Shown in pieces: positions 17,232-34,719 of a DNA stretch of 64,000 nt; the first letter of the stretch is position 1; every line of letters begins with the position of its first letter. Under the pieces are notes generated by a model that saw nothing but the letters and a program-made list of their open reading frames with translations, searched no databases and had not been told where the DNA came from. The position numbers and the translations under genes were made by a program. The stretch lies in assembly GCA_963677485.1 (NCBI GenBank), contig OY781964.1:4864001-4928000 (forward strand), read 5' to 3'. This stretch comes from Armatimonadota bacterium. Its GTDB lineage: Bacteria > Armatimonadota > HRBIN16.

Positions 17232-17373
17232 TAACCCCCTTTGTAATAGTCGGCTTGAATTTATACCGGCCCTCATGTACCCTTAATTGATGCAGCTCTG
17301 TTTCTTTGAGACGGCAACCAGAAAACCCCTCACAGGCTGCCTGGCCAACACACAATGGAGGATATCAACCATA

Positions 17374-18576
17374 ATGCACTCTCGTAGAATAAATGGGACT
17401 CTCGCATTGCTATTCTTGGTTCAAGGAACCTTGTCGGCGGCCGATTGGCCTCAGTTTAGAGGGCCAAATGCAGACGGGATTTCTGTCGAAAAAGGCATCA
17501 ACAAAACATGGAACCAAAAACCGCCGGTGCAGTTATGGAAGACGGCTATGAGCGATGAAGGGTTTGCGGGCGTATCGGTTGTTAAAGGCGTCGCATATGT
17601 CATCGACCACGCACCTGGGCAGGATGTGGTAAGGGCAATCAATGTGACGACGGGCAAGGATGTCTGGTCCTACCCATATGCCGATACTCAAAAATCCAAC
17701 TTCGGGTATTCCAGAGCCACACCCACCGTCAACGCAAACCGTGTGTATGTACTGGGACGAATGGGCCTGCTGACATGTCTGGACATCAAAAACGGCAAGC
17801 CAATTTGGTCACGCAATATCATGACAGATTTCAACGGCAAGAAGCCAAACTGGAACTATGCCATGTCACCCGTGGTTGATGGGAATAAACTGATCGTTCT
17901 TCCTGGTGGACCAGGTTCTCTCGTGGCAGCACTAGACAAAACAACAGGTAAGACCATATGGCAAGGTGGCGGCACACGTGAGCCAGGTTATGCCACGCCC
18001 ATCATAGCGACCTTCAACGGTAAAAAGCAGTATTTAGTGTTCGCAGCTACTGAGATTGTCGGGGTTGATGCCAGCAATGGTGCAGAGCTATGGGCTCTCC
18101 CATGGGGAAAGCCTTCCGCACACATCCCTGACTTTGTGTTGATCGGTAACTCCTTCTATGTAACCAACAGCTATGGCGAAGGCTGCGCATTGGTAGATGT
18201 CACCGCATCTGGTGCTAAATATCGATGGACAAACAAAGAGATGCAATCGCATATGGCGACACCCATTCTTGTGGGCGGCCTACTGTATGGCACCACCGAT
18301 CCAGGTGACCTGATCTGCATTGACCCGCAGACCGGTGTCACAAAGTGGCGACAAAACGGCTTCGAAAAAGGGCCGCAGATGATGGTGGACGGCGTGCTGC
18401 TGGTATTCAACGGCCACAATGGTGACCTGGTGATGGTCGATCCCAAACCCGATGCCTACCACGAACTCGGTCGGTTCAAGCCACTCGGCGGGCAAAGCTG
18501 GACAATGCCAGTTGTGTCTGACGGTAAGCTGTTTGTACGAAACACCACCGCTCTGGCGTGTTTTAAGCTGAAGTAG
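17374..18576 (+). CDS. Secreted PQQ-like (BamB-like) beta-propeller protein 1
   Basis: Signal peptide, DWPQFRGP, repeated Trp-docking blades (TGKDVW, NGKPIW, TGKTIW, NGAELW, TGVTKW). Confidence 0.85.
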   Translation: MHSRRINGTLALLFLVQGTLSAADWPQFRGPNADGISVEKGINKTWNQKPPVQLWKTAMSDEGFAGVSVVKGVAYVIDHAPGQDVVRAINVTTGKDVWSYPYADTQKSNFGYSRATPTVNANRVYVLGRMGLLTCLDIKNGKPIWSRNIMTDFNGKKPNWNYAMSPVVDGNKLIVLPGGPGSLVAALDKTTGKTIWQGGGTREPGYATPIIATFNGKKQYLVFAATEIVGVDASNGAELWALPWGKPSAHIPDFVLIGNSFYVTNSYGEGCALVDVTASGAKYRWTNKEMQSHMATPILVGGLLYGTTDPGDLICIDPQTGVTKWRQNGFEKGPQMMVDGVLLVFNGHNGDLVMVDPKPDAYHELGRFKPLGGQSWTMPVVSDGKLFVRNTTALACFKLK

Positions 18577-18659: not shown

Positions 18660-19862
18660 ATGCGTCTTATCAAATGGTTCGCGCTGATTCTGGCGATACT
18701 CATGCCTGTTGTCGTGCACGCGTCAGATTGGCCCCAGTTCCTTGGCCCTACCGGTAACAGCATATCAACAGAGAAAATCGCCAATAGGAACTGGAATAGA
18801 ACTCCACCTAAGAAGCTCTGGAGTGCAGCCATGAGCGATGATGGTTATGCAGGACCATCTGTGGTTGCAGGAAAAGTGTATATCGTCGACCATATCGGAT
18901 CGGACAATGTGGTACGGGCCATTAACCTTAAAACAGGCAAAGATGACTGGACATATCGATTCCCAGATGCCGAGAAAGCGAACTACGGCTACGTTCGAGC
19001 CACTCCGATAGTCAACACAAGGCGAGTCTACATTCTTGGCCGGTTTGGTGAGATCATCTGTTTGAATTCCGCCAATGGTAAGAAGATATGGGCACGCAAC
19101 TACGCTTCAGAATTCAAAGGTAAGAAACCCACATGGAACTACTCAATGTCGCCTCTCATCGATGGTAACAAAGTGATTCTGTGTGCTGGCGGCGACAACG
19201 CAGCTATGGTCGCACTTGACAAGATGACCGGCAAGGCAATATGGCAAGGTGGAGGCAGTGATCAGGCCAGTTACGCCACCCCTACCGCCGCAGTCATTGG
19301 GGGCGTCCGTCAATATGTCGTGTTCACTGCAGTGAGCATCATCGGAGTAGACGCCGCGAAAGGCAACCTGCTTTGGCGTGTTCCTTGGAAAACCAGTTAC
19401 GACATCAATGGCGCTGCCGCTCAGATAACGGGAAACCGCGTATTTCTCACGAGCGGGTACAACCATGGTAGTATCCTACTGGAAATCAACGGACACACCG
19501 CGAGAACCGTCTGGGAATCCAAAGACATGCAATCGCGGTTCAACTCACCAGTGTTGTTAAGTGGCCACGCTTACGGCATTGGCGAGCCCGGAGAGCTTTC
19601 CTGCATCAACCTTCAGACGGGTAAAGCGACATGGAAACGTGCTGGATTCGAATTCGGAGGGCTGATCGCAGTCGATGGTTTAATACTGGCCATGAACGGC
19701 GGAAGCGGTGAGCTGGTCATGGTGAAGGCATCACCAAACAGCTACCAGGAGCTCGGTAAGTTCACTCCTCTGGGCGGTCAGAGCTGGACGGCTCCGATAC
19801 TGACGAACGACAACCTCATCGTTCGGAACAAAACCACTCTGGCCTGCTTCTCACTGAAGTAG
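18660..19862 (+). CDS. Secreted PQQ-like beta-propeller protein 2 (tandem paralog of protein 1)
   Basis: DWPQFLGP; shared blocks AMSD.G.AG.SVV, NYxMSP, PLGGQSWT, VRN.T.LACF.LK. Confidence 0.85.
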   Translation: MRLIKWFALILAILMPVVVHASDWPQFLGPTGNSISTEKIANRNWNRTPPKKLWSAAMSDDGYAGPSVVAGKVYIVDHIGSDNVVRAINLKTGKDDWTYRFPDAEKANYGYVRATPIVNTRRVYILGRFGEIICLNSANGKKIWARNYASEFKGKKPTWNYSMSPLIDGNKVILCAGGDNAAMVALDKMTGKAIWQGGGSDQASYATPTAAVIGGVRQYVVFTAVSIIGVDAAKGNLLWRVPWKTSYDINGAAAQITGNRVFLTSGYNHGSILLEINGHTARTVWESKDMQSRFNSPVLLSGHAYGIGEPGELSCINLQTGKATWKRAGFEFGGLIAVDGLILAMNGGSGELVMVKASPNSYQELGKFTPLGGQSWTAPILTNDNLIVRNKTTLACFSLK

Positions 19863-21131
19863 CTCTGAGTAGGCTTGAATAGTCTCTGCCGCCATTTTGG
19901 CGGCAGAGAAGTGTTCCCTGATCCCGGCTGCGCCTGAACTACCCATGGCATCGGCACGCTCGGGATTTTCAATAAGCTGGCCGATCGCCGACGCCAGTGA
20001 ACTTACGTCGCCCTGATGATACATCACTCCGCCACCTGTCAGGCCCAACATCTCCGGGAATATCCCCGATTGGGGCACCACTACGGGCACACCCATAGAT
20101 ATAGCCTCCATCACGGCCATTCCGCGTGACTCTGATATTCGGGTGGGCACCGCAAACAGGCTGCACCCTTTGAGAAATTCCAATTTACCGGAAAGACTCA
20201 CCTCACCCAAATGCTGAAATCTTGACGACAAACCCTCTAAGGCCAAACGGCTGGTTAACGCCTTATAGAATTGATGGTCAAGAACCTTGCCTGCCACCCG
20301 CAAGGTGACATCACGGTGTTGTTCTTTCGCGAGCTTTATGAAAGCCTCAGCAAGGATATCCAGACCCTTTGCTCGGTTGATCACAGACAGATAACCGACC
20401 ACTACAGGGTTCTTCGGCCTTTCGATCGTGTTGCGATACGTGCTGGTGTTGATACCCGCATGTATCACCTTGATTTTGCTCCGGTCCACATTCAAGAACT
20501 CACTCATGCTGACGGCATAGTCTCCACCTGGGGCAATGAACAGGTCGATCGATTTCGCATTGGCTTGCATCAGCTCCCTGGCCTTCGACCGATATGGTTC
20601 GGGCATCATGTTCACAAACCCGTCTTCGCCCTGCAATGTGCAGACCACCGGCACCCCAAGCTGCTGTTTAATCTGCACGGCGATGCCTGACAGCATCGAG
20701 TTCGTGATGTTCACCACACCATGCTCTGGGTTCTGCTTCAAGTGATCGATCAACCTCGACAGCTCTTTCCTCTGCTGCCCGTTCTGACCCTCCAGCACAG
20801 ATAAGGTCATTGGTCCCAAATCCTCAGGGCGTGTCTTGATGGAGAATCTGGACGCCCACTTCAGCAGCCGCCGGTTGTCAAACAGACGGTCGAAAGCTCG
20901 CGGGGTGTTCCGAAAGATCGGGGAAAGCTGTTGAAGGAAGACATTGATTCCGCCGTAATAGATAGGAGCGGTGCCCAGCACTGATTCTTCATCGGAATGG
21001 AAAGGGGTGTAGAGCGTGGTCACGCTGACATCGTGCCCAAGTGAGGTCAGCTCGTGGATGAGCGCGACATCACGCGCGCATGCTCCACAATACATATCCC
21101 CTGCCCCCGCCACGATGTATGTGATGCGCAT
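19851..21131 (-). CDS. Glycosyltransferase family 4 with N-terminal YCGAC motif
   Basis: GT-B motifs KGLDILAEAF, ESRGMAVMEAISMGVPVV; N-terminus AGAGDMYCGACARD. Confidence 0.85.
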   Translation of the reverse strand: MRITYIVAGAGDMYCGACARDVALIHELTSLGHDVSVTTLYTPFHSDEESVLGTAPIYYGGINVFLQQLSPIFRNTPRAFDRLFDNRRLLKWASRFSIKTRPEDLGPMTLSVLEGQNGQQRKELSRLIDHLKQNPEHGVVNITNSMLSGIAVQIKQQLGVPVVCTLQGEDGFVNMMPEPYRSKARELMQANAKSIDLFIAPGGDYAVSMSEFLNVDRSKIKVIHAGINTSTYRNTIERPKNPVVVGYLSVINRAKGLDILAEAFIKLAKEQHRDVTLRVAGKVLDHQFYKALTSRLALEGLSSRFQHLGEVSLSGKLEFLKGCSLFAVPTRISESRGMAVMEAISMGVPVVVPQSGIFPEMLGLTGGGVMYHQGDVSSLASAIGQLIENPERADAMGSSGAAGIREHFSAAKMAAETIQAYSELLQ

Positions 21132-21153: not shown

Positions 21154-22080
21154 CTAGAATTCCGCAGACAGAGCATGCAGCCGCAAGAGTGAGAGCGACC
21201 CCAGACCGTAATAAGTGTACTCGATGTCGGCTTCGCCATCGCTAGCTGAAGCTCGGAATCCGCCATCCGATGTCAGCAGGCTGCTGATGAAGCGGGCTGT
21301 CTGCGGCAGGTCAAGACGCTCAAGGTCATCCAGACCAGACAAGCAGACCATGCCAGTAAATGTTGACAGTAGATCCGCTTCGTCGATCAAGGGTATAGCC
21401 CGCAACCCTCCGCCTGGTGACTGCATGTTGGCCAGAAATGCGGCGGTCTGTGCAGATTCATCTGCATTGATTGCCCCTAGCAGTGTCAGACAAGCGACAG
21501 CAGCAGCCGTGGCATTTGTCTGACTACATGGCTCACCAGCCGTCTCACAATAACCGCCATCAGACCGTCTGAGCCCATTGAGAGCCCGTATGATGCCGTC
21601 TTTATCGGGTATATCGACATCAAGTATTTCATAACACAGCATAGCGAGAAATGTGTGATAGGCACTGACAACCGTGTCATTCGGCCGGGAGTACCCACCC
21701 CCTGGGAGATGCTGTCCACTTAACACAAGCATGATCTGGTCCAGGTTCAGAGTATATTTCGCTTCATCGGATCCCATCATACGCCAAATATTCAGCACAC
21801 TGAAACACTCAAGGACATCGTTTGGCTGATGGTGCCCAGCGGCAACGAACGGCATGGCCTTAGTTGGTGGAACAGGGTGGTTGTGAACAAGGCGAAGTGT
21901 TCGTAACCCAAAGTCGGTGTAATAGAGGTCGGACCTTCCCTGTCGGCCACAGAACCCGCCATCTGGTGATTGACAAACAGAAACATACTGTGTGATGTGG
22001 TTTCTGAGGGCTTGGCCCAACGATCTGGCACCCGTTTTGAGGGCTCCATCCAGGGCGGCGAGGAACCCTATTGGCATCAC
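21154..22080 (-). CDS. Prenyltransferase/squalene oxidase repeat protein (single alpha/alpha barrel, GGTase beta-like)
   Basis: Repeats QSPDGGF, RRSDGGY, QSPGGGL, TSDGGF with DLYYT, DLLST, DIEYTYY helices. Confidence 0.8.
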   Translation of the reverse strand: MMPIGFLAALDGALKTGARSLGQALRNHITQYVSVCQSPDGGFCGRQGRSDLYYTDFGLRTLRLVHNHPVPPTKAMPFVAAGHHQPNDVLECFSVLNIWRMMGSDEAKYTLNLDQIMLVLSGQHLPGGGYSRPNDTVVSAYHTFLAMLCYEILDVDIPDKDGIIRALNGLRRSDGGYCETAGEPCSQTNATAAAVACLTLLGAINADESAQTAAFLANMQSPGGGLRAIPLIDEADLLSTFTGMVCLSGLDDLERLDLPQTARFISSLLTSDGGFRASASDGEADIEYTYYGLGSLSLLRLHALSAEF

Positions 22081-23786
22081 GAAATACGGCCTGGTAATAC
22101 CAGGCTGATAATAAACCGCATGAGTTCCTGCATCGGTAACGGATCAAAACTGGAAACCAGCTCTTCAGCTTTCGATCGCAGTTTTTGCACCAACCGTTGG
22201 GTTTTATCAAAGACCCCCAGCTCGGTGTAGAGGTTTCGAAGCCGCTCCACCTCCGCAACAGAATCGGAGGCCGCTTCCAGCAGATGCCTCTCCGATTCGG
22301 AACACGCTTGCAGGGCAAAGGCATGCAAGATCGTTGGCCTTTGAGCCAGCACATCTCCGCCTGCCAGCTTACGGTTGGCATTGTCCAGCTGCCAGTCTTC
22401 CAGGTCATTGAGCGCTTGATACCCCTCACCGAGGTAGGTGCAAAACAGCCGGAGCTTCTGATGGTCGATCTCAACCTTTGCGGCACGTAAACCGGCGTAT
22501 AGTGCTACCTCGAGCGCAGGGGCCGTCTTCAGCGAATAGATCGATAGCACATCCATCGGGCTTAGTATCTGCCCGCTCCGGCCTTTCCACATGAGCTCCG
22601 CACCCTGTCCACGGCACAAATCCAAATGGGCGCTGGAAAGACAGCGCAGGATGTCCGCCGTGCACTCTGCACCAAGAGCCGATGCCTCACCAGCCACCAG
22701 GTTGTAACCTAGACCGACCAGGTAGTCACCCACATTGATAGCCGGTGCCACGCCATGCTTTCGATGGATGGTCATCTGACCGTAGCGATAGATGTCATTG
22801 TCCTCGATGTCATCATGCACAAGTGAGGCCTTATGCATCGCCTCGATAGCCATCGCGAGCCGTCGGATTGACATGGGTATGAGCGTGTAGGGATCAATAT
22901 CTGCTTCCAGAGCGTGGCTCCCATGGATGGCGACCGCATACGAAGCCACCGTCAAAAACGGCCTCAGCCGTTTACCACCATGAGTGAACCAGTCCAGTGC
23001 GATCTTCTCGGTCGCATCACGAGGTTCTATTTCTGATCCATCGGGCAAGAACTGTGCAATACTAGACGGCAGCGCTTCTCTTAACCCCGCCATATCAAAA
23101 ATACCCATCGTCTCACGCAACAAATGCACATAGGTGCGCGGAGGCGACACCGTTTGCTTGGATGACATGCGGAGTATCGAGCGCAACTCGCCTAGTTCGG
23201 TGGTCGTGTTGACGCATCCATCTTGCAGCAGCGGGACGGCCATGTAGGGGATACCAATATCGGATATTCGTGAATACGACTTCTCCAGCGAATCCAGGCA
23301 GGCCACTCCAAGCAAGGCATCCGTGCCACCCTCGAGAACCTTCATGATGACCGCCGTGGTGCCCTCTGAGATGATGACCTCATAACCGAGCCGTTCGGCT
23401 TCTGACTTCAATCCGCCGATATCACACGCATCGCATTGCCTGCACATCAGATTGGAGGCGTCGAGTTCGGCCGTGCATTCCGCATGGTTGCTCATGCAGT
23501 GTGGCAGCAGCAGCAACCTGCGGTGGAATGGCACCGTCTCGAAATACCTGCGCCAATATATGTTGCTTATGGCCACCATCGTATATCCCAGGTAGACTTC
23601 AGACAGCGAAAGCTTTTTTAACAATGATGCAGCCATTGATTTTAGCTCTTCTTGAGACGGGTAACGATCAGTCACGAACTCCGCGGCCTGATCCTCAGCT
23701 AAGCTGCGAATCGAAGCCCTGACCGATTTATCCTGGGGTACCTGTTTGATATCACTGGTTAGGTGTTCACGCGCTGCTGACATCAT
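22077..23786 (-). CDS. Polyprenyl diphosphate synthase fused to a Cys-rich DUF116 domain
   Basis: GGKRLRP, FARM LVHDDIED..YRYG, GQ, KTA, second motif NDLED; N-terminal LLLPHC...C...CRQCDAC...GVAC. Confidence 0.85.
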   Translation of the reverse strand: MMSAAREHLTSDIKQVPQDKSVRASIRSLAEDQAAEFVTDRYPSQEELKSMAASLLKKLSLSEVYLGYTMVAISNIYWRRYFETVPFHRRLLLLPHCMSNHAECTAELDASNLMCRQCDACDIGGLKSEAERLGYEVIISEGTTAVIMKVLEGGTDALLGVACLDSLEKSYSRISDIGIPYMAVPLLQDGCVNTTTELGELRSILRMSSKQTVSPPRTYVHLLRETMGIFDMAGLREALPSSIAQFLPDGSEIEPRDATEKIALDWFTHGGKRLRPFLTVASYAVAIHGSHALEADIDPYTLIPMSIRRLAMAIEAMHKASLVHDDIEDNDIYRYGQMTIHRKHGVAPAINVGDYLVGLGYNLVAGEASALGAECTADILRCLSSAHLDLCRGQGAELMWKGRSGQILSPMDVLSIYSLKTAPALEVALYAGLRAAKVEIDHQKLRLFCTYLGEGYQALNDLEDWQLDNANRKLAGGDVLAQRPTILHAFALQACSESERHLLEAASDSVAEVERLRNLYTELGVFDKTQRLVQKLRSKAEELVSSFDPLPMQELMRFIISLVLPGRIS

Positions 23787-25536
23787 CACCAATCCTGCTA
23801 ATGGGGTTCTGGAGAGCACTAAGCGAGCCTAACGCTTCTACCGTCCAGATGACCGGATACAGACGTTCAGAATACCAGAGACTGGAAAAATACAACCCGA
23901 TAGGCGAAGCTTCGGTCCAACTGCCATCTTCAACCCGTGTGATCAGATGTTCGCCGCCAGATTTGATGACCTCACTCACACCGGGCCGTGAGGAAAACTG
24001 GCATAAAGCTGATAGCACAGTCGCCGTCTCCTCGACAGAAGAGCGTATGCCGGGAGCCCCACCCCATCCACCGTCAGAATTTTGGGCAGCCACCAAGTAT
24101 TTTACACCTTTACCCGACTCCATATGACTGGTATGCGACCCCGCATAGGCTAGAAGCGTCCTGGCGGTGCCATATACGGGGTTGTGACCGGTTTCAGTAG
24201 CTTGGTTACCAAACCACAATGGGATCCAGGAACCATCCTCGTTCTGCGTCCGATGCAGATACGCATATCCATTTGCAATGGCCGCCTTCAATGGCTGATC
24301 TGTTGAATGCTGCCCAAAAGCGTGAAGCGCACGCAGCGTATGTGATGTGATATCAGGCGAGCTCTTGTCGAATGGCAACTGCCCCCAGCCCCGACAGAAA
24401 GCCGGCCAGCCGCCGTCTGAGTTCTGCAGGCCGCGCAGCCAGCTCACTCCCTTGGCAGCCGCATCAGATTGGTTCAGCCCCAATAGGGCCAAAACCGCGC
24501 CTGATGTATCATCGGCATCAGGCACACCACCCGGATGATGCGTCCAAGGAAATCCCCCAGGACTTGCACCGGTGAAGGGGTGCTTTGCCTGTTGTTGCTG
24601 GTGGCCTATCCATTGGGCTGTATGCGAGACATCAAGCCGGCTCAAACTCTCCGCCCGGTCAAGAGCAGCCACAGCGCCTGTGGTCAGCCACACCGATAGG
24701 TCGGTATCGATCGGCCAACTGCCATCATCGCGTTGGGATGCACTGATGAACTCCAGGCATTTACTCACCGCGGGGTGCCGGGCACCACGAACTGAACCCA
24801 AACTCATCGCCACGAAGCCTGTCAACGGTGTCGCCTCTAGAAATCCGCCGTTCACGGGCTGGATTTTCGCTAGTATAGCTAGAGCGGCGGGCATCACCGC
24901 CTGACGGATATATCTGCTCATCGCCGACTTTGGTGGGTTTCGGTGAAACAAAGTGATACCGATGGCTATCAAGGCAGGTAAAGCGTAACTGACCACATGA
25001 AGCCGTAGAAATCGAAATAGGCTCTGAGGGAACACCGCCAACTCAAACGGCAGCGAAGGCACACTGCTCCATGGCACCATTCCCGCCAACGCGCAGTTCA
25101 TCAAGATTGGCACCGCAAAAGTGCGGTCCTCACCGTAGATATTTGTGACGGCTTTCACAATTTCATCCGGTGTGGACCCCGCGTGTGCTTCGATGTAGGT
25201 GTTCGCATTCGCAGATGCAGCAAGATGGTCTTGTTTGGATAGTTTGAGTGCGGCGATGACCAGCAATGTGGTCGAAAGATTGCTGGGGCTGGTTGAGGTG
25301 TCACCCCAGCCGCCATCGGAGTTTTGGGTCTGAGCGAGCCACTCCACACCCGTAGCTATACGGTTCGCGTGGGCTTCTAGCTCAGATACCGCCATCGCAC
25401 TGACCGCAATGGCCGTGGAGAGTGCCGAGGAGGAGAGCTCACCCTTCCAGTAGCCTTCAGGCTGCATCTCGTTTAGAAGATACTCTACGGCCTGGTGTGT
25501 GGCTTGGGCCAGCCTCTCGTGATTGATATCGCTCAA
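23767..25536 (-). CDS. Squalene-hopene-cyclase-like class II terpene cyclase
   Basis: Catalytic PDADDT; QW repeats QNSDGGW (x3), QRDDGSW, QNEDGSW; W.GEL N-terminus; VYGT; TTG start coupled to the upstream TGA. Confidence 0.85.
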   Translation of the reverse strand: MSDINHERLAQATHQAVEYLLNEMQPEGYWKGELSSSALSTAIAVSAMAVSELEAHANRIATGVEWLAQTQNSDGGWGDTSTSPSNLSTTLLVIAALKLSKQDHLAASANANTYIEAHAGSTPDEIVKAVTNIYGEDRTFAVPILMNCALAGMVPWSSVPSLPFELAVFPQSLFRFLRLHVVSYALPALIAIGITLFHRNPPKSAMSRYIRQAVMPAALAILAKIQPVNGGFLEATPLTGFVAMSLGSVRGARHPAVSKCLEFISASQRDDGSWPIDTDLSVWLTTGAVAALDRAESLSRLDVSHTAQWIGHQQQQAKHPFTGASPGGFPWTHHPGGVPDADDTSGAVLALLGLNQSDAAAKGVSWLRGLQNSDGGWPAFCRGWGQLPFDKSSPDITSHTLRALHAFGQHSTDQPLKAAIANGYAYLHRTQNEDGSWIPLWFGNQATETGHNPVYGTARTLLAYAGSHTSHMESGKGVKYLVAAQNSDGGWGGAPGIRSSVEETATVLSALCQFSSRPGVSEVIKSGGEHLITRVEDGSWTEASPIGLYFSSLWYSERLYPVIWTVEALGSLSALQNPISRIGDDVSSA

Positions 25537-27044
25537 CTTTTGGCCCGAAACCCATGCAGTGCGAAAAGTGTATTCCACTGCAGAACCTGTCCGCGGCCGA
25601 GAACCTGCAGCAGAGCTCTACGTCCTGCAGGAACACCCGCCGCCTTCTGGTTATCCCAATACATTTTGGGTATCCACCGGAAGTTCAGCTTGTAGGATTC
25701 TTTGACCAGTTGCCAGTGCAGCCGGCTCATATCCTTCACCTTTAAGCCATTGGTGCCGTCAATGGGAGCATACAGCACAGGGAACACAGTGATGCGCAGA
25801 TTCGACATGGATTGGACCCAATCTACAGTCTTCTGAACGTCCTTTGGGCTCTCCCCAGGCAGGCCCACCACAAGGCTGACCATCGGCATAAATCCGGCTT
25901 TGCACAGTCTGCGGAGCTGCTCTGCGGCGAACTCGCCCCAGTGTTCTGCCGGAGCACGCCCCATTTTCACAGAACCGCCATTCGCCTTGAGCAACTCGCC
26001 AGAGATCGTCTCAACCCCGACGTTCACCCAAGGATACTCACAGCCTGTGTCACCGACCAGCAGACCATGTATGGTGCTCAACTGTTCATCCGAAAACTGC
26101 GAGATGCTCAACACATTGGCATGATCGGTCTGTATCAGCCGCAGCCCTTCGATCTGCCGCAGTTTCTTCAGAAGAGAGATCACCGCGTCAGGGTTGGCCG
26201 TGGTGCCGGTGGATCCATACCGGAAAAAGTCCTCGCTGAGGATCGCGATGCTGCTCATGCCCGCTTTGATGTTGGTGAGCACATCCGCCACTACGGTGGC
26301 TTCGGGCAGATGGATCATCGGTACACGGGCGATCGTGCAAAACGCGCACCCCAATCCACAGCCACGGCTGATCTCCACCACGCCCATGGAACTCGCGCCG
26401 CGTATGCATGGAACCGCGTCCGCGGACACAGGTTCTCCAGATAGACTGGGGGCCGTCTCGCCACCATCGATGATGCGGTGGAACAGCTCCGCCACGTTGC
26501 CCTCTGCGTAACCGCTAATGACATGATCAATCCCCAGCTTCTGCATCTGGCGTGGATCAGCTGCTATTTGCCAAGCCCCTGGTCCGCCCATCACGAGCTT
26601 CGCTTTGGACTGGGATATCTTTAGAGTCTCTTTCACTCTGTTCATGAGGCGTTCGAACATCACCAGTGGGAATATCTGTCCACCTGCGATTTCTGTCATG
26701 GTGGAGCTGTTCATACCGTGTCCAGCCGGCTCACCAGAGCTCACCGCGATAATCGCAGTGTCGGCGCCTACGGCCTGATGCAGGTTGCGCTCATCGACGA
26801 CGATCACCTCATCGGAAGTAAACCCGCCTGCGAGCAATGCCGCCTCGATGCGGCGAAGTCCTAAGGGAGCTGTCAAGGCTCGGATGTCAGTACCCCGGTT
26901 CCAGGGCATCAGCAGGTCCGAGGTCACCCACGGCGGGATACTGGATGTCTGGCTGGCCGCCAGCATTCCATCAAACAACAGTTTATAGTTGGCCATCAGC
27001 GTACGATCGGCCGTGAGCACCACTTTGTAGCCTGTTTGTATCAC
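25533..27044 (-). CDS. B12-binding-like radical SAM protein resembling archaeal GDGT ring synthase (Grs/Gms) homologs
   Basis: CGLGCAFC cluster motif; VVLTADR, APLGLRRIEAAL, GGPGAWQ, VEISRGC, VGVETISG, GLPGE. Radical SAM call is firm; the subfamily is from recalled motifs. Confidence 0.75.
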   Translation of the reverse strand: MIQTGYKVVLTADRTLMANYKLLFDGMLAASQTSSIPPWVTSDLLMPWNRGTDIRALTAPLGLRRIEAALLAGGFTSDEVIVVDERNLHQAVGADTAIIAVSSGEPAGHGMNSSTMTEIAGGQIFPLVMFERLMNRVKETLKISQSKAKLVMGGPGAWQIAADPRQMQKLGIDHVISGYAEGNVAELFHRIIDGGETAPSLSGEPVSADAVPCIRGASSMGVVEISRGCGLGCAFCTIARVPMIHLPEATVVADVLTNIKAGMSSIAILSEDFFRYGSTGTTANPDAVISLLKKLRQIEGLRLIQTDHANVLSISQFSDEQLSTIHGLLVGDTGCEYPWVNVGVETISGELLKANGGSVKMGRAPAEHWGEFAAEQLRRLCKAGFMPMVSLVVGLPGESPKDVQKTVDWVQSMSNLRITVFPVLYAPIDGTNGLKVKDMSRLHWQLVKESYKLNFRWIPKMYWDNQKAAGVPAGRRALLQVLGRGQVLQWNTLFALHGFRAKS

Positions 27045-27048
27045 TAAT

Positions 27049-27915
27049 CTATAATCGCTTCTGGGCAAGCTTTTCGAGGTCATCCACCAGGCTATCCAGG
27101 TCATCAAGTGCACCTTGTGGCGGGAGAGGTACTGGCTTTTGAACAGATAACATCGGGCGTCCGCACTGCTTACATAGTTCCGCAGCCGGGTCAAACTTGG
27201 TCATGAGCATCAAGGTTGGTTTTTGCCCACACAAGCTACAAACCGCACCTCCAGTGCTGACTTGTGGCTTCCTGGGATTACTGCTCATAGTCACAAACAA
27301 TCCCGGCGCGCCTGCGATGGACTCATCTTTGCTGTACAGCGGAAAACTGATGGCACTGTTCGGGCAGACCCGGCTGCAAGCGGGACAACCCGGCTTACAG
27401 TTCTCTGGGTTGGTGGCAGTGACGCGGTGCTCAGCATCATACTCATACACATTGAAGATGCAGAACTGCAGGCAGTTTCCGCAGTTGGTGCATCGTGAGC
27501 CGTCCATCACCGGATACCACCTGTCGGTGACCTCCTCTGTGATTTCACTGAGCGATCCCACTGTAGCACCAAGCTCGTTGTGCGCATATAAAGCCCAGAC
27601 GGCTTCATAACACTCATCTTCAGACTGATACGCTGCCATGTTGAACACGTGCGATGCATCAATGCCGCATCCGTGTTTTTGAAGCAAGGCAGCGGCCGGC
27701 CGAGTGTGTATCCAGCTTAAAAATACGAACTCCGTCGAAACCACCGGTAATGAATCCCATACAGGTGAAGTTTCAGACAAGTGGTAACTATGGGGTATGA
27801 GCAGCACGTCGAAATGACCCGAAACCCTGCACTTTTCGGCAAGAGCGTCTTCGAACGAGTGGTGCATAAGATCACCAGTATTATCCCTGGAAATGACAAC
27901 GTGTATGCTATTCAT
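27049..27915 (-). CDS. 2x[4Fe-4S] ferredoxin-domain protein with extra N-terminal domain and C-terminal CxxC...CxxC
   Basis: CTNCGNCLQFC and CKPGCPACSRVCP; CSLC...CKQC; start MNSIH behind AGGA. Confidence 0.75.
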   Translation of the reverse strand: MNSIHVVISRDNTGDLMHHSFEDALAEKCRVSGHFDVLLIPHSYHLSETSPVWDSLPVVSTEFVFLSWIHTRPAAALLQKHGCGIDASHVFNMAAYQSEDECYEAVWALYAHNELGATVGSLSEITEEVTDRWYPVMDGSRCTNCGNCLQFCIFNVYEYDAEHRVTATNPENCKPGCPACSRVCPNSAISFPLYSKDESIAGAPGLFVTMSSNPRKPQVSTGGAVCSLCGQKPTLMLMTKFDPAAELCKQCGRPMLSVQKPVPLPPQGALDDLDSLVDDLEKLAQKRL

Positions 27916-27990
27916 GATCTCATCCTGCGGGCTTTCTTTGGTCATGTGTGTGAAGAAGCTCGTGTTGTTTGTTGGGATTTCCTGGTGTTC

Positions 27991-28117: not shown

Positions 28118-29593
28118 ATGAAAACGGCACCGCTAGTCAAGGCCCTCCCGGCTATCGCCGCTGCTTTGTGCATCTACATGCTGGCTTACTGGTATACAAG
28201 CAACCAGCATTCAGTTCATGTCGTCAAGCGTATACCTGGTCAAGATTTGCAAGCAGCACAACCAGGTTCCAATGGGGCTGAGCAGGCGGTTCAACCAAAT
28301 GGTAATGCTGCCAGTCCAACAGCATCTGAAGGGACGGCCAATCCGGCAAAAACGGCCCCCAGCCAAGCTGCCTCGTCAGTCGCCGCGAATACTGTGGTTC
28401 CGGTGCTACCCGGCGAATGGCCGCGCTTCAGAGGGGCCCAGGATGACAACATCAACTCGGAAAAAGTAGCCTTGGGCACCAAATGGTCTACTGGGGCCCC
28501 TCCCCTGCTCTGGAACCTCGATGTGGGCGAAGGTCATGCCGCGGCAGCCATCAAGAACAGCCGTGTCTACATTTTGGACTACGACCGTACGGCTCAAGCG
28601 GATGTGCTGAAGTGCCTTGCCCTTTCCGACGGTAAAGAGCTGTGGAAATACTCCTATCCAGTGGCGCTTAAGCGAAACCACGGTATGTCCCGCACCATTC
28701 CTGCAGTGACAGATAAGTATGTGGTGACCATTGGGCCGAAGTGCAATGTGGTGTGCGCCGATCCGATGACCGGGCACGTGTTCTGGACACTGGACCTGGT
28801 GAAGGAATACAAAACGGAGGTTCCTCCATGGTATGCAGGCCAATGCCCGCTCATAGATGGCGACCGTGCCATCATCGCCCCTGGCGGGAGTTCTTTGATG
28901 GTGGGTATTGACTGTGCCACCGGTAAAGTCGCCTGGAAAACTCCAAATCCCAGGGCATGGAGCATGACACACTCGTCTATCACGCCAATGGTGTTCAAAG
29001 GCCAAAAGATATATGTCTATTGCGGAAGCGGTGGAGTAGTCGGTGTCTCTGCGAAAGACGGCTCGATCCTCTGGCAAACCACAGACTGGACGGTCAAGAT
29101 CGCCAACGTGCCATCGCCTGTGGTGGTGGGTAATGACCGCCTGTTCCTCAGCGGTGGATACAACGCAGGCTGTGCCATGCTGCAGCTTCAGTCCACAGGA
29201 AACAAGATCACCACTCATATACTTTACAAACTGCCTCCCACGGTCTTTGGATCAGACCAGCAAACACCTATTCTTTACAACGGCTATATCTATGGGGTCA
29301 TCCCAGGCGGCCAGTTGGCCTGCCTAGACCTTGATGGCAAAATCAAATGGACAAGCGGTGCCGCCTATCGGTTTGGTATCGGGCCTTATCTCATCGCCGA
29401 TGGCAAGATACTGGCATTGGATGATCTCGGGCTGCTCACCATCGCGGAATCATCACCTAAAGCTTTTCGGCCGCTGGCACAGGCCCGGCTTCTCGGCGGA
29501 CACGATTGCTGGGGGCCCATGGCGCTCGCTGGCGGACGCTTGATCGCCCGCGACCTCACTAAGATGGTCTGCGTGGATATCGCGAAACACTGA
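28118..29593 (+). CDS. Membrane-anchored PQQ-like beta-propeller protein 3
   Basis: N-terminal TM helix, Ala/Pro linker, EWPRFRG, RNHGMSRTIP, Trp-docking blades. Confidence 0.82.
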   Translation: MKTAPLVKALPAIAAALCIYMLAYWYTSNQHSVHVVKRIPGQDLQAAQPGSNGAEQAVQPNGNAASPTASEGTANPAKTAPSQAASSVAANTVVPVLPGEWPRFRGAQDDNINSEKVALGTKWSTGAPPLLWNLDVGEGHAAAAIKNSRVYILDYDRTAQADVLKCLALSDGKELWKYSYPVALKRNHGMSRTIPAVTDKYVVTIGPKCNVVCADPMTGHVFWTLDLVKEYKTEVPPWYAGQCPLIDGDRAIIAPGGSSLMVGIDCATGKVAWKTPNPRAWSMTHSSITPMVFKGQKIYVYCGSGGVVGVSAKDGSILWQTTDWTVKIANVPSPVVVGNDRLFLSGGYNAGCAMLQLQSTGNKITTHILYKLPPTVFGSDQQTPILYNGYIYGVIPGGQLACLDLDGKIKWTSGAAYRFGIGPYLIADGKILALDDLGLLTIAESSPKAFRPLAQARLLGGHDCWGPMALAGGRLIARDLTKMVCVDIAKH

Positions 29594-29628
29594 GCTATCT
29601 GTCATCACCACCGAGGGAGAATATAGAC

Positions 29629-30657
29629 GTGAACGAGCCACTTTTTCCTAACGGACCGAAATGGAATGGATCGACTGTGCTGAAGTTGGCAATCGTCATA
29701 TACATCATCATTGTTGGCACCGTAGTTATATGGTTGACATATAACCATGCGTCCAAACGCAGTGCAACTTCACCCTCAGGGTCAGCGTATGATGACCAGA
29801 TACGATTGCTGGGAAAAACAAACCCTAGCCAGGTAGGCTACACCGAATTAAAACAAATCCCCACTGGCTTGGCAGAGCCTCGCAACATCGCGTTGGATAA
29901 CAAAGGCAATCTGTATGTAGCAGGCGACTATTCCATTAAGGTGTTTGCACCTCAAGGCAATCCGCTGCGCGATATAGCCACCTCTGGCCAGCCGTATTGC
30001 CTGAGTGTAGACCAGAATGGCGATATCTACGTTGGCATGAAGGCGCATGTCGAAGTGCTGTCGTCCAAAGGTGAGAACATATCGGTCTGGCCCTCTCCCT
30101 CACCAAAATCGCACTTTACGGCACTTGCCGTCACGGATAAGGACGTGTGGGTGGCTGATGCGGTAAACAAGCAGATACTCCGATACAATAAAAATGGGGC
30201 CGTCACGGCCATTTTCGCACGTAAAGAGCCTGAAAAGAAGATTGAGGGATTGCTTGTGCCCAGCCCGTATTTGGATATAGCACCAGCAGAACAAGGTGCG
30301 ATATGGGTGGCGAATCCAGGTAAACACGAACTGGAGCTATACTCAGCCGATGGCAGCCTGAAGAAGCACTGGGGTAAGTTTGCTTTTTCCACTGAAGGGT
30401 TTTGCGGATGCTGCAACCCCACAAACATCGCTGTCACACCAGATGGGCGTTTCGTCACGAGCGAAAAAGGGATACCCCGGGTCAAGATATATCACGCAGA
30501 CGGGTCATTCCAATGCGTGGTTGCAGGATCGGAGTCATTCAAGCCTGATACCGCAGGGCTGGATTTGGCTGTAGCTTCAGACGGACGGATATATGTGCTC
30601 GACCCAGCCAATAAAACTGTTAGGATTTTCATAGAAAAGAACAAGGCCAGTCAATGA
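29629..30657 (+). CDS. Membrane-anchored NHL-repeat beta-propeller with GFCGCCNP motif
   Basis: TM helix; EPRNIALD.KGNLYVA, VWVAD, DLAVASDGRIYVLD. Confidence 0.78.
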   Translation: MNEPLFPNGPKWNGSTVLKLAIVIYIIIVGTVVIWLTYNHASKRSATSPSGSAYDDQIRLLGKTNPSQVGYTELKQIPTGLAEPRNIALDNKGNLYVAGDYSIKVFAPQGNPLRDIATSGQPYCLSVDQNGDIYVGMKAHVEVLSSKGENISVWPSPSPKSHFTALAVTDKDVWVADAVNKQILRYNKNGAVTAIFARKEPEKKIEGLLVPSPYLDIAPAEQGAIWVANPGKHELELYSADGSLKKHWGKFAFSTEGFCGCCNPTNIAVTPDGRFVTSEKGIPRVKIYHADGSFQCVVAGSESFKPDTAGLDLAVASDGRIYVLDPANKTVRIFIEKNKASQ

Positions 30658-30890: not shown

Positions 30891-31442
30891 ATGAAAATCA
30901 ACCGACGTGATCTCATCAAAAACAGTGTCTGGTATACTGGCCTGCTTGGTATAGCCGGGGGTCTGGGAGTCGCCTCAGGTAAAAGTGAATCGGCGACCGT
31001 CTGGCAGATCGATCCCAACAAGTGCATCAGTTGCGACAAGTGTTCTACCGCCTGCGTGCTCACTCCTTCCGCGGCCAAGTGCGTCCATGCCTACTCAATG
31101 TGTGGCTACTGTAAACTCTGCACAGGCTTCTTTGAACCAGACCCTAATGCGTTGAATACCGGAGCCGAAAACCAGCTTTGTCCTACTGGAGCCATCAAAC
31201 GCAGCTTCATCGAAGACCCATATTATGAATACGTCATCGATGAATCGCTGTGTATCGGATGTGCGATCTGCGTGAAAGGCTGCAACGCCTTTGGGAATGG
31301 GTCGCTGTTCATGCAGGTTCGCCATAACCGTTGCGTGAACTGTAACGAATGCGCCATTGCCAAGGTTTGTCCTGCCGATGCATTTTCCCGTGTCCCAATA
31401 GATCAGCCCTATTTACTCAAGACTAAAGAACAACAGAAATAA
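30891..31442 (+). CDS. Tat-exported multi-[4Fe-4S] ferredoxin (NapG/MauM-like role)
   Basis: NRRDLIK twin-arginine signal; CISCDKCSTAC, CGYCKLC...CP, CIGCAICVKGC, CVNCNEC...CP. Confidence 0.8.
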   Translation: MKINRRDLIKNSVWYTGLLGIAGGLGVASGKSESATVWQIDPNKCISCDKCSTACVLTPSAAKCVHAYSMCGYCKLCTGFFEPDPNALNTGAENQLCPTGAIKRSFIEDPYYEYVIDESLCIGCAICVKGCNAFGNGSLFMQVRHNRCVNCNECAIAKVCPADAFSRVPIDQPYLLKTKEQQK

Positions 31443-32740
31443 TGCGAAAATTCTGGCTCTGGATCGGCGCACTACTTAGCTGCACCATCACTACCTACGC
31501 TATTGAACGGTTCCCGCCGCCCGATTTTACTTCGGGATACAAAATTCATGTACCCACTACGCCTCCGGCCAGAGCTGATATCTATGGGTTCATCGACATC
31601 GCTGTGTTGGTTCTCGCACTGATGCTGGCGTCCTACTTCGTGATTTGGCGACGTTCACGCCGTGGTGTGGTGCTGCTGTCGGTGTTTTCGCTGATCTACT
31701 TTGGTTTCTACCGGCATGGCTGCATCTGTCCGATTGGCTCGATACAGAATGTGGCGTTGTCGCTAGGTGACGCCGGATATAAGTTACCGTTGCTTGCGGC
31801 GGTTTTTTTCTTTACTCCCCTTCTCTTTGCCTTTTTCGTGGGCCGGGTTTTCTGCGCAGCTGTCTGCCCTCTGGGGGCCATTCAAGATCTCTTTCTCAGA
31901 AAGCCGGTGAAGGTTCCTGAGTGGCTGGCCCAGCCGTTGTCGCTCCTCCCTTGGATATACCTGGGCGCCGCGGTTTTATTCGCCGCCACGAACACCGCAT
32001 TCGTCATCTGCGAATATGACCCGTTTGTCGCCTTCTTCCGGCTAAGCGGAAGCCTGACGATGCTGATCTACGGCGGTCTGGTGCTGCTGCTGGCGGTGTA
32101 TATCGGCCGCCCATATTGCCGATTCCTCTGCCCGTATGGCGCGCTGCTCCGACTGGTTTCGCCTCTGGCAAAATGGCGCGTGACCATCACGCCCGACAAG
32201 TGCATCCAGTGCCGCCTTTGCGAAAAAGCCTGCCCGTTTGGTGAGATTAGGATGCCGACCCAGGATATGCCCACCAAACGCCAGGAAGGCAAACGGCAGT
32301 TGACGCTCTGGCTGGCTATGCTGCCGGTGATCGTCACAGCGGGAGTGTTGTTAGGCTACCTTGGCAGTGCGCAGATGTCTCACACTAACCGCAATGTGCA
32401 ACTAGCAGAACGGCTGTGGAAAGAAGAACACAAATCGGTAGAAGGCACCACGGACCAAACCACCGCTTTCAATAAACTAGGATCACCTAACGCCGTGTCC
32501 TATCAAAAAGCATTGGCTGTCCAACAGCAGTTCAAGAGCTTCGGCATGTGGTTTGGAGGCTGGCTAGGACTGGTCATCAGCCTGAAAATGATCATGCTGT
32601 CTATCCGTCGACGGCGGACTGATTATGAGGCCGACTCGGCAGGCTGCATCGGATGCGCCCGCTGTTATGTGACCTGCCCTGTGGAACGAGCCCGTCATGG
32701 TGATCTGGATGCCATCAAGCTGCTTGAGGAGAAATCATGA
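31442..32740 (+). CDS. Polytopic 4Fe-4S membrane protein (NapH/MauN/YccM-like)
   Basis: GCICP, GRVFCAAVCPLG, RPYCRFLCPYG, CIQCRLCEKACP, CIGCARCYVTCP; many TM helices. Confidence 0.85.
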   Translation: MRKFWLWIGALLSCTITTYAIERFPPPDFTSGYKIHVPTTPPARADIYGFIDIAVLVLALMLASYFVIWRRSRRGVVLLSVFSLIYFGFYRHGCICPIGSIQNVALSLGDAGYKLPLLAAVFFFTPLLFAFFVGRVFCAAVCPLGAIQDLFLRKPVKVPEWLAQPLSLLPWIYLGAAVLFAATNTAFVICEYDPFVAFFRLSGSLTMLIYGGLVLLLAVYIGRPYCRFLCPYGALLRLVSPLAKWRVTITPDKCIQCRLCEKACPFGEIRMPTQDMPTKRQEGKRQLTLWLAMLPVIVTAGVLLGYLGSAQMSHTNRNVQLAERLWKEEHKSVEGTTDQTTAFNKLGSPNAVSYQKALAVQQQFKSFGMWFGGWLGLVISLKMIMLSIRRRRTDYEADSAGCIGCARCYVTCPVERARHGDLDAIKLLEEKS

Positions 32741-34719
32741 CCAACAGCAGTAAAGCCACAAACCAGAATTTGAACCCCGCAGAGACGTACCAGTCGTTGA
32801 TGATCACCATAGCGATCATCGCTGTTTTTTGCCTGGTAGTCACCACACTGATGTTGTTCAATCATGACAAGATCAGTCGCACCGATCCAAGGTATGCGGC
32901 TTCGTTGATCAGCCTCAAACAGCAGCTGCATAAACAGCCAACCGATGAAGCGCTTAAAGCGAAGTTAAGGGACACCGATGCCGCACTCCGAAAAGAGTAT
33001 CTGCGGCGACTGGACTTCGCCAACACTGGCAGCTATCTGTTGTTTATCGGGATTGCTGGTCTGCTGGTCGCCATCCCCGCCGCCGCGCAATATAGGCGGA
33101 AGATCGCTTTGCCGGAGGCGCAGACTGACGTCAGCGAAGAACAACGACGAGCGGCCAGGTTGCCCAGAATTGGTATCGCCACTCTGGGTATCGTGATCGC
33201 GGGTGGTATGGTGACCTTCGCGTTCACCTCGAACGGTGACTTGACCGAAGGTTACAAGAAATCGGTCAGCGATTATCTCAAGAGTAAGCCTGCACAATCT
33301 GCGGACCACAGCCAACCGGCACCTGTGGCCAGTGCCGCGAACACACCCGCTGCTGCTGGCTCTATGCCTACAAGCTCCACACCTCCGGCTATGACAGGAC
33401 CGATACCTGCCCTGCCTCCGTTGCCAGGACAGGCCAATCCGACAGTCACCAGTCCTGATGCTGCCAAACAAGCACCGGCTGCACCTGTCAAACCGCCGCA
33501 ATTGGCTGTGGAAGCGGCATTTGACGCACAAGACTACGCCCCCACACTCGAGGAATACAACCAGAACTGGCCGGTGTTCCGCGGACCATCAGCCGGCACC
33601 GTCTCCGGCTCGTATCCGACTAGCTGGGATGCCTCATCGGGTAAGTTAATTCTTTGGAAAACACCGATACCCCTGCCAGGATGGAACTCCCCAGTCGTGT
33701 GGAAGGACCGTGTGTTCCTGGCCGGAGCTGACAAGCAGAAGCGAGAACTATACTGCTTTGCTGCTAATGATGGCAAGCTCTTGTGGAGCAAGACCATTGA
33801 TGTGCTCGTTGCTGGAAAGCCGCCTGAGGTATATGATGACACCGGCTATGCGGCCCCGACTCTGGCCGTCAACGGCATGCATGTTTTCGCCATCTTTCCA
33901 AACGGCGATGTGGTCTGTTACAGCCTGACTGGCGAGATGGTATGGCAGCGTAACCTGGGTGAGCTGGAGAGCATGTACGGATACGCCTCGTCGCTCAGCT
34001 TGTATAAAAGCTTGCTTATTATTCAGTATGATCAAGGCTCAGGCGATGACGGCAAGTCGGCATTGATGGCACTACAAAGCAGCACCGGGAAGATCGTTTG
34101 GCTGACACACCGCGACGTCGCGAACTCCTGGAGCAGCCCACTCGTGGTGAACACCAATGAAAGTGGCTTGATCATCACCAATGCCAACCCGTGGTCTATT
34201 GGCTATGATGCACTGACGGGCAAGGAGCTTTGGCGGGCCAAGCTGATGAGCGGTGATGTCGCTCCCTCTGCTGCGTATACCGATGGAATCGCCTATCTTT
34301 GTAACTCAGGCGCAGTGCTGGCCGCTGTCCGAACTGATGGAACTGGCGACGTCACCAAGTCTAAAGTGTTATGGCAATCAACTGATGGCCTACCCGATAT
34401 TACGAGCCCTGCCTCCAATGGCGAATACGTATTTACTGTCACCACCGAAGGCACCCTCACCTGCCATGACACGAAGCAGGGAAAAAAGCTCTGGGACCAC
34501 GCTTACGATGGGGTTTTCAAAGCATCACCCGTGATCATCGGACACAGTGTGTATCTTCTGGACGGTGAAGGCGTGATGCATATCGTCAGCCTGAAGCAGA
34601 GTTTCACTGAAGAATCCACGGCTTCAATTGGTGAGAAGGCCAACGCAACCCCAGCATTTTCCGCCGGCCGAATATATATCCGCGGACAGAACCACCTGTT
34701 CTGCATAGGTGCCAAGTAA
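32737..34719 (+). CDS. Multi-TM-anchored PQQ-like beta-propeller protein 4
   Basis: Three N-terminal TM helices, Pro/Ala linker, NWPVFRGP, GWNSPVVWKDRVFL, SWSSP. Confidence 0.82.
   Translation: MTNSSKATNQNLNPAETYQSLMITIAIIAVFCLVVTTLMLFNHDKISRTDPRYAASLISLKQQLHKQPTDEALKAKLRDTDAALRKEYLRRLDFANTGSYLLFIGIAGLLVAIPAAAQYRRKIALPEAQTDVSEEQRRAARLPRIGIATLGIVIAGGMVTFAFTSNGDLTEGYKKSVSDYLKSKPAQSADHSQPAPVASAANTPAAAGSMPTSSTPPAMTGPIPALPPLPGQANPTVTSPDAAKQAPAAPVKPPQLAVEAAFDAQDYAPTLEEYNQNWPVFRGPSAGTVSGSYPTSWDASSGKLILWKTPIPLPGWNSPVVWKDRVFLAGADKQKRELYCFAANDGKLLWSKTIDVLVAGKPPEVYDDTGYAAPTLAVNGMHVFAIFPNGDVVCYSLTGEMVWQRNLGELESMYGYASSLSLYKSLLIIQYDQGSGDDGKSALMALQSSTGKIVWLTHRDVANSWSSPLVVNTNESGLIITNANPWSIGYDALTGKELWRAKLMSGDVAPSAAYTDGIAYLCNSGAVLAAVRTDGTGDVTKSKVLWQSTDGLPDITSPASNGEYVFTVTTEGTLTCHDTKQGKKLWDHAYDGVFKASPVIIGHSVYLLDGEGVMHIVSLKQSFTEESTASIGEKANATPAFSAGRIYIRGQNHLFCIGAK

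Follow-up and report, generated by a model that had tools for sequence, protein, structure and literature searches.

A bacterial radical SAM protein related to the archaeal ring synthases GrsA and GrsB is encoded in a conserved terpene-cyclase cassette of Armatimonadota

The ring synthases GrsA and GrsB act on archaeal tetraether lipids, and in Sulfolobus acidocaldarius they have been assigned to the proteins Q4J8I0 and Q4JC22 (PMC13023045), that is Saci_1585 and Saci_0240, which are our reference proteins here. The review PMC13459092 describes the Grs architecture as an N-terminal Rossmann-like domain of the cobalamin type, a barrel and a C-terminal helical part, and its section 2.4 predicts that these proteins lack auxiliary clusters. 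Bacterial homologues of GrsA and GrsB have been proposed as ring synthases for branched glycerol dialkyl glycerol tetraethers (GDGTs) in PMC10087280, PMC11868695 and PMC13023045, one of which required 30% identity to GrsA. A clade of class II cyclases resembling squalene-hopene cyclases (SHC) has been published as 'SHC-like' or of 'unknown function', with a genomic context taken to suggest that its precursor is not squalene (PMC7306690, PMC12414744). Here we report on a stretch of 64,000 nucleotides from an Armatimonadota bacterium (assembly GCA_963677485.1, contig OY781964.1, positions 4,864,001 to 4,928,000; hereafter the window), in which a radical S-adenosylmethionine (SAM) gene with affinity to GrsA and GrsB lies in a cassette of genes around such an SHC-like cyclase:

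25533..27044, minus strand: Grs-type radical SAM enzyme, 503 aa (assigned from its translation, Pfam PF04055, an AlphaFold2 model, Foldseek and its matches to GrsA and GrsB)

The cyclase clade and the bacterial Grs homologues are already published, and what we add is the tie of the cassette's radical SAM gene to Grs; no link of a Grs-type gene to an SHC-like cassette was found in the literature searched, which did not cover supplements where one might be shown.

Compared by BLASTP, the window's radical SAM protein and GrsA are 28% identical over 417 aa (E 2e-48). When a genome with a copy 100% identical to GrsA was searched with the window protein, three matches were obtained at E<=0.01, namely GrsA (9.3e-46), GrsB (2.3e-35) and a weak third match (2.5e-4); when the window's own genome, a single contig that is 97% complete, was searched with GrsA, the single match at the same threshold was the window gene (E 1.5e-41), so that the two are reciprocal best matches at the level of genomes. 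Radical SAM paralogs from the window's genome and from archaeal genomes were included in the local BLAST comparisons, and here a wide gap separates Grs-type proteins (1e-34 to 2e-76) from every other paralog compared (8.6e-9 or worse). A Nitrosopumilus genome and a Nitrososphaera genome each had one matching open reading frame of ~526 aa (E 4e-51, covering residues 4-458 of the window protein), and in a sample of Thermoproteota 208 of 251 genomes gave a match at E<=1e-25, the best at 5.5e-73, with 27-37% identity over near full length. A first-pass annotation of this DNA had claimed an affinity to Grs, and the match to GrsA, the reciprocity, the gap to the paralogs and the tree test described below all bear it out. 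The weak third match in the GrsA-bearing genome is an open reading frame of ~400 aa (401 aa, locus G254:C1:1829439-1832885), which joined GrsB on a long branch in the larger of our two trees.

The rows for these trees were chosen by hand: 12 of 120 bacterial relatives (about every tenth), all 13 genome loci, the top 30 matches from archaea, 8 named archaeal proteins and outgroup paralogs (7 in the 83-row tree, then 4 in the 40-row tree), and both were built without Gmm, Ted, Saci_1785, HpnP and HpnR sequences. In the 83-row tree (IQ-TREE quick search, LG+C20, with support from the Shimodaira-Hasegawa-like approximate likelihood ratio test, SH-aLRT), 26 bacterial rows form one clade (99), and 51 archaeal rows, with both thaumarchaeal paralogs, GrsA and GrsB among them, form another (99); support for where the outgroup attaches is low (68). 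The 40-row tree (careful search, LG+G4) agrees, with the ingroup supported at 100/100, its bacterial clade at 100/99 and its archaeal clade at 93/98. In an approximately unbiased (AU) test on the 40-row tree, an arrangement holding the bacterial clade with the GrsA clade was not rejected (delta lnL 13.1, p-AU 0.179), and the placement of the bacterial clade as sister to all archaeal Grs is therefore our best estimate and not a settled point. These sequence comparisons support an affinity to Grs, in the form of a bacterial clade that is sister or near-sister to the archaeal one.

The radical SAM gene is the second of six co-directional genes, and a divergent pair of genes lies on the other side of the first:

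27049..27945, minus strand: ferredoxin-domain protein, ~298 aa from an internal ATG favoured by relatives (longest open reading frame to 28056)
23767..25578, minus strand: SHC-like class II terpene cyclase, 603 aa (GTG 25578) or 589 aa (TTG 25536)
22077..23819, minus strand: fusion of a Cys-rich DUF116 part with a trans-polyprenyl diphosphate synthase, 580 aa (Pfam PF01976 and PF00348)
21154..22080, minus strand: single alpha/alpha-toroid protein of prenyltransferase fold, 308 aa (Pfam PF00432, 82.6 bits)
19851..21131, minus strand: GT4 glycosyltransferase, 426 aa, the last gene of the run (Pfam Glycos_transf_1 and Glyco_transf_4)
28118-29593, plus strand: PQQ_2/BamB-type beta-propeller, divergent from the cassette (Pfam)
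29629-30657, plus strand: NHL-repeat protein, which forms the divergent pair with the propeller (28118..30657; Pfam)

The order ferredoxin-domain gene, radical SAM gene, SHC-like cyclase, DUF116-polyprenyl synthase and toroid protein is conserved. Among 151 genomes of the host phylum, the radical SAM gene is present in 15 and the cyclase in 18, and all 15 radical SAM genomes carry the cyclase; no statistic was put on this co-occurrence, as kin genomes are not independent. At the 13 loci fetched for gene order, the ferredoxin-domain gene is directly upstream of the radical SAM gene in every case and the cyclase directly downstream in 12, the thirteenth genome having its cyclase on another contig; the fused synthase was found at 11 of these loci, the toroid protein at 10 and the GT4 gene at 6, with some loci cut by contig ends. 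Of 553 candidate metagenome stretches, 436 code for a relative of the radical SAM protein, and our counts cover the best 80. Where at least 600 nt of downstream sequence was available (n=70), the next gene is the cyclase at 58 loci, the fused synthase at 2 and neither at 10; the ferredoxin-domain gene is upstream at 53 of the 62 loci with enough upstream DNA, and the synthase downstream at 32 of 37. The order with cyclase and polyprenyl synthase is kept down to 45-48% identity. The terpene-operon context that the first-pass annotation had read from this single locus is hence conserved across genome and metagenome loci.

On the plus strand, 25533-27044 is broken by stop codons, and the reverse strand is open. 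The longest open reading frame (25533-27194, TTG start, 553 aa) overlaps the upstream ferredoxin-domain gene; a GTG at 27044, 4 nt past the TAG of that gene, gives a protein of 503 aa, the length of most of the best 120 listed relatives. Its translation contains, in this order, VVLTADR, APLGLRRIEAAL, GGPGAWQ, VEISRGCGLGCAFC, VGVETIS and GLPGE, which is the order of six motifs that the first-pass annotation had given; it had named no strand, and the strand is minus. The TTGA overlap with the cyclase that it had described is likewise present, as the TGA stop (25535-25533) shares letters with a TTG (25536-25534) that is in frame with the cyclase. Across 47 aligned bacterial relatives with 53-92% identity to the window protein (mean column identity 62%), the cysteines C229, C233 and C236 of the CX3CX2C motif are invariant in all 47 rows, as are most residues of the remaining motifs. 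Of the columns in a 12-row alignment with GrsA and GrsB among its rows, 27 do not vary, and these include the CX3CX2C cysteines (12/12). Judged from these alignments, the motifs are not due to chance.

Beyond the CX3CX2C motif, C381 is present in 41 of the 47 bacterial rows and further cysteines are rare. Because only the CX3CX2C cysteines are conserved in 47/47 rows, the protein as predicted from its alignment has no site for an auxiliary Fe-S cluster, which fits the lack of auxiliary clusters that section 2.4 of the review predicts for Grs. Membership in the SPASM-type Tes/Gms group was considered and rejected, as there are no conserved cysteines besides CX3CX2C; C-terminal SPASM cysteines for two auxiliary clusters are given as the hallmark of Tes/Gms in the 2026 review PMC13459092. 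The first-pass annotation had counted Gms among the B12-domain proteins, which does not hold, since the same review has Gms as SPASM-type and aligned with Tes. Gmm, which it had listed beside Gms for comparison in a tree, is a B12 enzyme of another lineage, as described in bioRxiv 10.1101/2025.10.20.683597.

Among Pfam families, Radical_SAM (PF04055) was the sole match of the protein, at 36.1 bits against a cut-off of 29.5. In NCBIfam, 14 families matched at E<=0.01 and none above its own cut-off; the top family was TIGR04013 (the MJ_1487 family), with MiaB/RimO next, and membership in TIGR04013 is rejected at 90.5 bits against a cut-off of 251. GrsA and GrsB share this sub-threshold fingerprint, with TIGR04013 as their best family at 69.5 and 97.9 bits; since the two characterised enzymes themselves match only TIGR04013, and below its cut-off, NCBIfam appears to contain no curated Grs model. 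No hopanoid family is among the 14 NCBIfam matches, on which grounds HpnH, HpnJ, HpnP and HpnR are rejected as identities for the protein, as the first-pass annotation had also held. By sequence, the best solved structure is a methyl-coenzyme M reductase (MCR) glutamine methylase, 9ccb (E 3.4e-4).

Among 8000 candidates scored, 825 relatives were found at E<=0.001, of which the best 120 are 53-93% identical to the window protein and ~500 aa long; the named organisms among these 120 are Armatimonadota, Planctomycetes or Thermoguttaceae. Clustering at 50% identity leaves 134 representatives at E<=1e-30, 305 at E<=1e-10 and 763 at E<=1e-3. Identity to GrsA by BLASTP ranges from 22.9 to 29.6% across 121 bacterial family members, none reaching 30%. 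An equation of this family with the published planctomycete 'GrsA homologues' is thus not shown, and the published bacterial hits may belong to a different family.

The AlphaFold2 model of the protein (mean predicted local distance difference test score, pLDDT, 93.8; predicted template modelling score, pTM, 0.92) has alternating strands and helices over residues 8-202, followed by the barrel and by long helices at 441-500; the C-terminal helices are rich in Trp. In the model, the N-terminal domain ahead of the barrel is Rossmann-like and of the cobalamin type. Full-length Foldseek matches were to cobalamin-dependent radical SAM enzymes (MgmA, TsrM, CysS, OxsB and TokK) and to MiaB/RimO, with template modelling (TM) scores of ~0.5. 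The Grs-like architecture proposed by the first-pass annotation therefore stands as far as the cobalamin-type fold is concerned, but not in the form of a Pfam B12-binding domain, a point to which we return below; the enzyme may use cobalamin.

The product of the upstream gene consists of an N-terminal domain, a 2x[4Fe-4S] dicluster part, a CxxC...CxxC ribbon and an acidic C-terminal helix. It matches Pfam Fer4_10 and related families, and its eight cluster and four ribbon cysteines are invariant in 12 rows. The NCBIfam matches, weak and sub-threshold, are to ferredoxins of HgcB type, the partners of a corrinoid protein. The conserved N-terminal domain, of ~140 residues, matches no Pfam family. 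An alignment-based complex prediction for the radical SAM protein with the ferredoxin-domain protein scored 0.01 against a mark of 0.32, and this result carries no weight either way.

The cyclase matches Pfam SQHop_cyclase_N and _C, and all NCBIfam squalene-cyclase models are below their cut-offs. Its acid motif DxDDT is intact and is kept in 13/13 cassette cyclases. Alignments with its relatives start between residues 14 and 38 of the long form, and GTG 25578 and TTG 25536 are both candidate starts. In the fused synthase the first Asp-rich motif, DDIxD, is present in 12/12 copies, where Ala and Ser occupy positions -5 and -4, and the DUF116 part has seven conserved cysteines. The second Asp-rich motif of the synthase reads NDLxD instead of DDxxD in 10 of 12 cassette copies.

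A propeller gene stands beside the cassette at 10 of the 13 genome loci and an NHL-repeat gene at 9, and the pair is also found at some metagenome loci. Around the window's cassette there are four paralogous PQQ_2-type propeller genes (17287-18576, 18660-19862, 28118-29593 and 32737-34719, plus strand), and several related loci have an additional propeller gene between cyclase and synthase. Past the divergent pair, 30891-37094 (plus strand) encodes several Fe-S proteins in a row, namely a NuoE/NuoF-type fusion (791 aa) and two Fer4 proteins; they could serve the cassette as redox partners or have no relation to it. An open reading frame of 786 aa at 13495-15855 (minus strand) has no Pfam match at E<=1e-4.

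As to the substrate, the window's genome has no match to squalene/phytoene synthase (SQS_PSY) and none to PcrB, the geranylgeranylglyceryl phosphate (GGGP) synthase. Given these two absences, and with DxDDT and DDIxD kept in cyclase and synthase, the substrate of the radical SAM enzyme is probably the cassette's own polyprenyl-derived lipid and not a tetraether. In prenyl synthases, small residues at positions -5 and -4 of the first Asp-rich motif lead to a longer product, and the residues found there in the fused synthase suggest, as far as such sequence rules carry, a product longer than C20.

Starting from the homology, domain architecture, intact motifs, gene order and co-occurrence with the cyclase that were observed, we arrive at the following inferences on substrate, sequence of steps, ring closure, use of cobalamin and source of electrons. 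The DUF116-fused synthase would make a polyprenyl diphosphate, and the DxDD cyclase would protonate and then cyclise the chain. The radical SAM enzyme would take electrons from the ferredoxin-domain protein encoded upstream and cleave SAM at its single [4Fe-4S] cluster; a hydrogen would then be abstracted from an unactivated carbon of the isoprenoid, most likely followed by closure of a C-C bond to give an added ring. A cobalamin may sit in the Rossmann-like domain and park the first radical, in line with proposals made for Grs. Finally, the GT4 enzyme would glycosylate the product. We consider it probable, though by no means assured, that the bacterial Grs-type branch acts within the SHC-like terpenoid cassette and not on tetraethers, as this working model as a whole would have it. 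That the radical SAM enzyme has a lipid-tailoring role in the cassette is a view we hold with good confidence; ring closure on the cassette's isoprenoid is the likeliest chemistry, and we put it forward tentatively. The first-pass annotation had proposed ring formation, cross-linking or methylation of the polyprenyl product, with the ferredoxin as electron donor, and all of these are treated here as predictions.

Several observations weigh against this model. The bacterial clade lies outside the clade of both characterised enzymes in both best trees, so that the grouping with Grs made in the first-pass annotation stands as a specific sequence affinity but not as a place within the clade that holds GrsA and GrsB, and function may have diverged. 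For the bacterial members, ring closure is a prediction from homology. The chains on which Grs acts are saturated. As a search of the window's genome gave no geranylgeranyl reductase that passes its cut-off, the substrate here is probably either unsaturated or cyclised beforehand, with a chemistry differing from that of Grs. The Pfam B12-binding domain PF02310 was undetected in the radical SAM protein, whereas three other proteins of the same genome match it (among the 120 listed relatives, it is precomputed on 4). No match to CobS was found in this genome, and cobalamin would therefore need to be imported. The best structural matches, at TM ~0.5, are the methylases MgmA and TsrM.

The gene-order data hold two further points of this kind. 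At the 10 of 70 metagenome loci that have neither gene next to it, the radical SAM gene is without cyclase or ferredoxin nearby, and these are mostly repeated contigs of one lineage. This solitary lineage is ~55% identical to the window protein and is flanked by CbiA/MinD-Fer4 and Nitro_FeMo-Co-Fer4 proteins and a sigma-54 activator. Moreover, three of the 18 cyclase genomes are without the radical SAM gene, which is therefore not essential to the cassette. Two of these three have the order synthase, toroid protein, cyclase, and one has the cyclase alone; in the first two, the sole trace of a ferredoxin is a match of ~60 residues to a 4Fe-4S motif ~2 kb away. The pattern in the three genomes fits a pairing of ferredoxin and radical SAM gene, with too few cases to be weighed.

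Most characterised enzymes of this architecture are methylases. HpnP and HpnR methylate hopanoids, and Gmm and Saci_1785 methylate tetraethers. A cobalamin-dependent radical SAM C-methyltransferase acting on a cyclic terpenoid would be in keeping with the top Foldseek matches, MgmA (9ccb, E 1.6e-15) and TsrM (6wte, 4e-14), with 9ccb being likewise the best match by sequence in the Protein Data Bank (PDB), and with the divergence of homologous archaeal lipid enzymes into methylase and desaturase described in bioRxiv 10.1101/2025.10.20.683597. However, the affinity to GrsA and GrsB is more than 25 orders of magnitude above that to any other radical SAM protein compared, no methylase family is reached at its cut-off, and in the GrsA-bearing genome GrsA, GrsB and one weak 401-aa frame were all that matched at E<=0.01; we regard methylation as unlikely, but as an alternative to be taken seriously. 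Other hydrogen-abstraction chemistry on the isoprenoid, be it anaerobic desaturation, a rearrangement or an oxygen-free activation ahead of the cyclase, would suit the position of the gene upstream of that of the cyclase, and Ted, a tetraether desaturase of Bathyarchaeota, shows that enzymes of this class can desaturate inert lipid carbons (bioRxiv 10.1101/2025.10.20.683597). Ted is described there as a relative of Gmm and not of Grs, while the nearest characterised relatives of the window protein form rings, and such chemistry appears to us improbable.

Ring synthesis on tetraethers (branched or isoprenoid GDGTs), with the neighbouring genes being unrelated, would be in line with the proposals made for bacterial Grs homologues in PMC10087280, PMC11868695 and PMC13023045. 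It fits poorly with a gene order that includes cyclase and polyprenyl synthase down to the identity level given above, with the presence of the cyclase in all 15 radical SAM genomes of the phylum, with the lack of a GGGP synthase match in the genome, and with the finding that 0/121 family members have the 30% identity to GrsA required by one of these papers; we consider it very unlikely. Automatic names ('MtaB family' in the ESM Atlas, 'YgiQ' at JGI), a weak NCBIfam match to TIGR00089 (53.5 bits) and the presence of MiaB among the structural matches would point to a methylthiotransferase of the MiaB/MtaB/RimO type or a YgiQ-type protein. But the TIGR00089 score is far under the cut-off of 251, the 47 rows have no conserved N-terminal cysteines for a second cluster, no Pfam TRAM domain is present, and GrsA and GrsB give the same weak NCBIfam matches, so that we attach next to no credence to these names.

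Returning to a Grs-type enzyme at work on the cassette's own terpenoid, the tie to Grs gives the cassette's radical SAM protein a concrete chemistry, namely radical C-C ring closure on an isoprenoid, which would be expected to yield -2 Da products resistant to hydrogenation, next to a cyclase clade for which PMC7306690 and PMC12414744 give no known substrate or product. With it, enzymes of Grs type are present on the bacterial as well as the archaeal side of the lipid divide. In the widest form of this idea, Grs-type radical ring closure extends beyond archaeal tetraethers, and a bacterial sister branch, recruited or retained, adds rings to a squalene-independent, polyprenyl-derived polycyclic glycolipid; this we offer as a possibility that is rather doubtful as it stands. 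If it were true, sterol- or hopanoid-like membrane lipids of a new class would be made without oxygen, orphan polycyclic polyprenoid biomarkers would gain a candidate source, and matches to bacterial 'GrsA homologues' would not by themselves indicate ring-bearing tetraethers. The last point bears on geochemistry, where bacterial homologues of GrsA and GrsB are used to nominate producers of ring-bearing branched GDGTs; for the clade of the window protein, the context points to a terpenoid substrate.

Set beside the known systems, the window cyclase resembles the published SHC-like clade in having both SHC domains and the DxDD motif while lying below every squalene-cyclase cut-off. The locus differs from a hopanoid hpn cluster in that the genome has no squalene synthase match and the radical SAM protein no match of HpnH, HpnJ, HpnP or HpnR type. 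With the class B methylases MgmA, TsrM, TokK and CysS, the protein has in common a Rossmann-like domain followed by the radical SAM barrel (Foldseek E 1.6e-15 to 1e-8, TM ~0.5; HpnP/HpnR and Gmm/Saci_1785 are likened by description), and it differs from them in its marginal sequence similarity, which reaches no family cut-off, and in the undetected Pfam B12-binding domain. Ted is alike as a radical SAM enzyme of the cobalamin type whose oxygen-independent reaction is on inert carbons of isoprenoid lipids; it is unlike the window protein, in a comparison made by description, in its 31% identity to Gmm and in having a Grs gene as its neighbour (bioRxiv 10.1101/2025.10.20.683597).

The closest likeness is to GrsA and GrsB themselves, with which the bacterial proteins have in common a similar length, the same three-part architecture, the lack of extra conserved cysteines, a lipid substrate that is presumably isoprenoid, and the motifs VVLTxDR, APxGLRxxEAxL, GGPxxWQ, RGCxxxCxFC, GxETxS and GxPxE. 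They differ in an identity of just 23-30%, in forming a separate bacterial clade in the best trees, in their bacterial-specific Trp-rich C-terminal helices and in a host without a GGGP synthase match. Above all they differ in setting, as the bacterial gene has genes for a class II cyclase and a polyprenyl synthase as neighbours and a dedicated ferredoxin-domain gene upstream.

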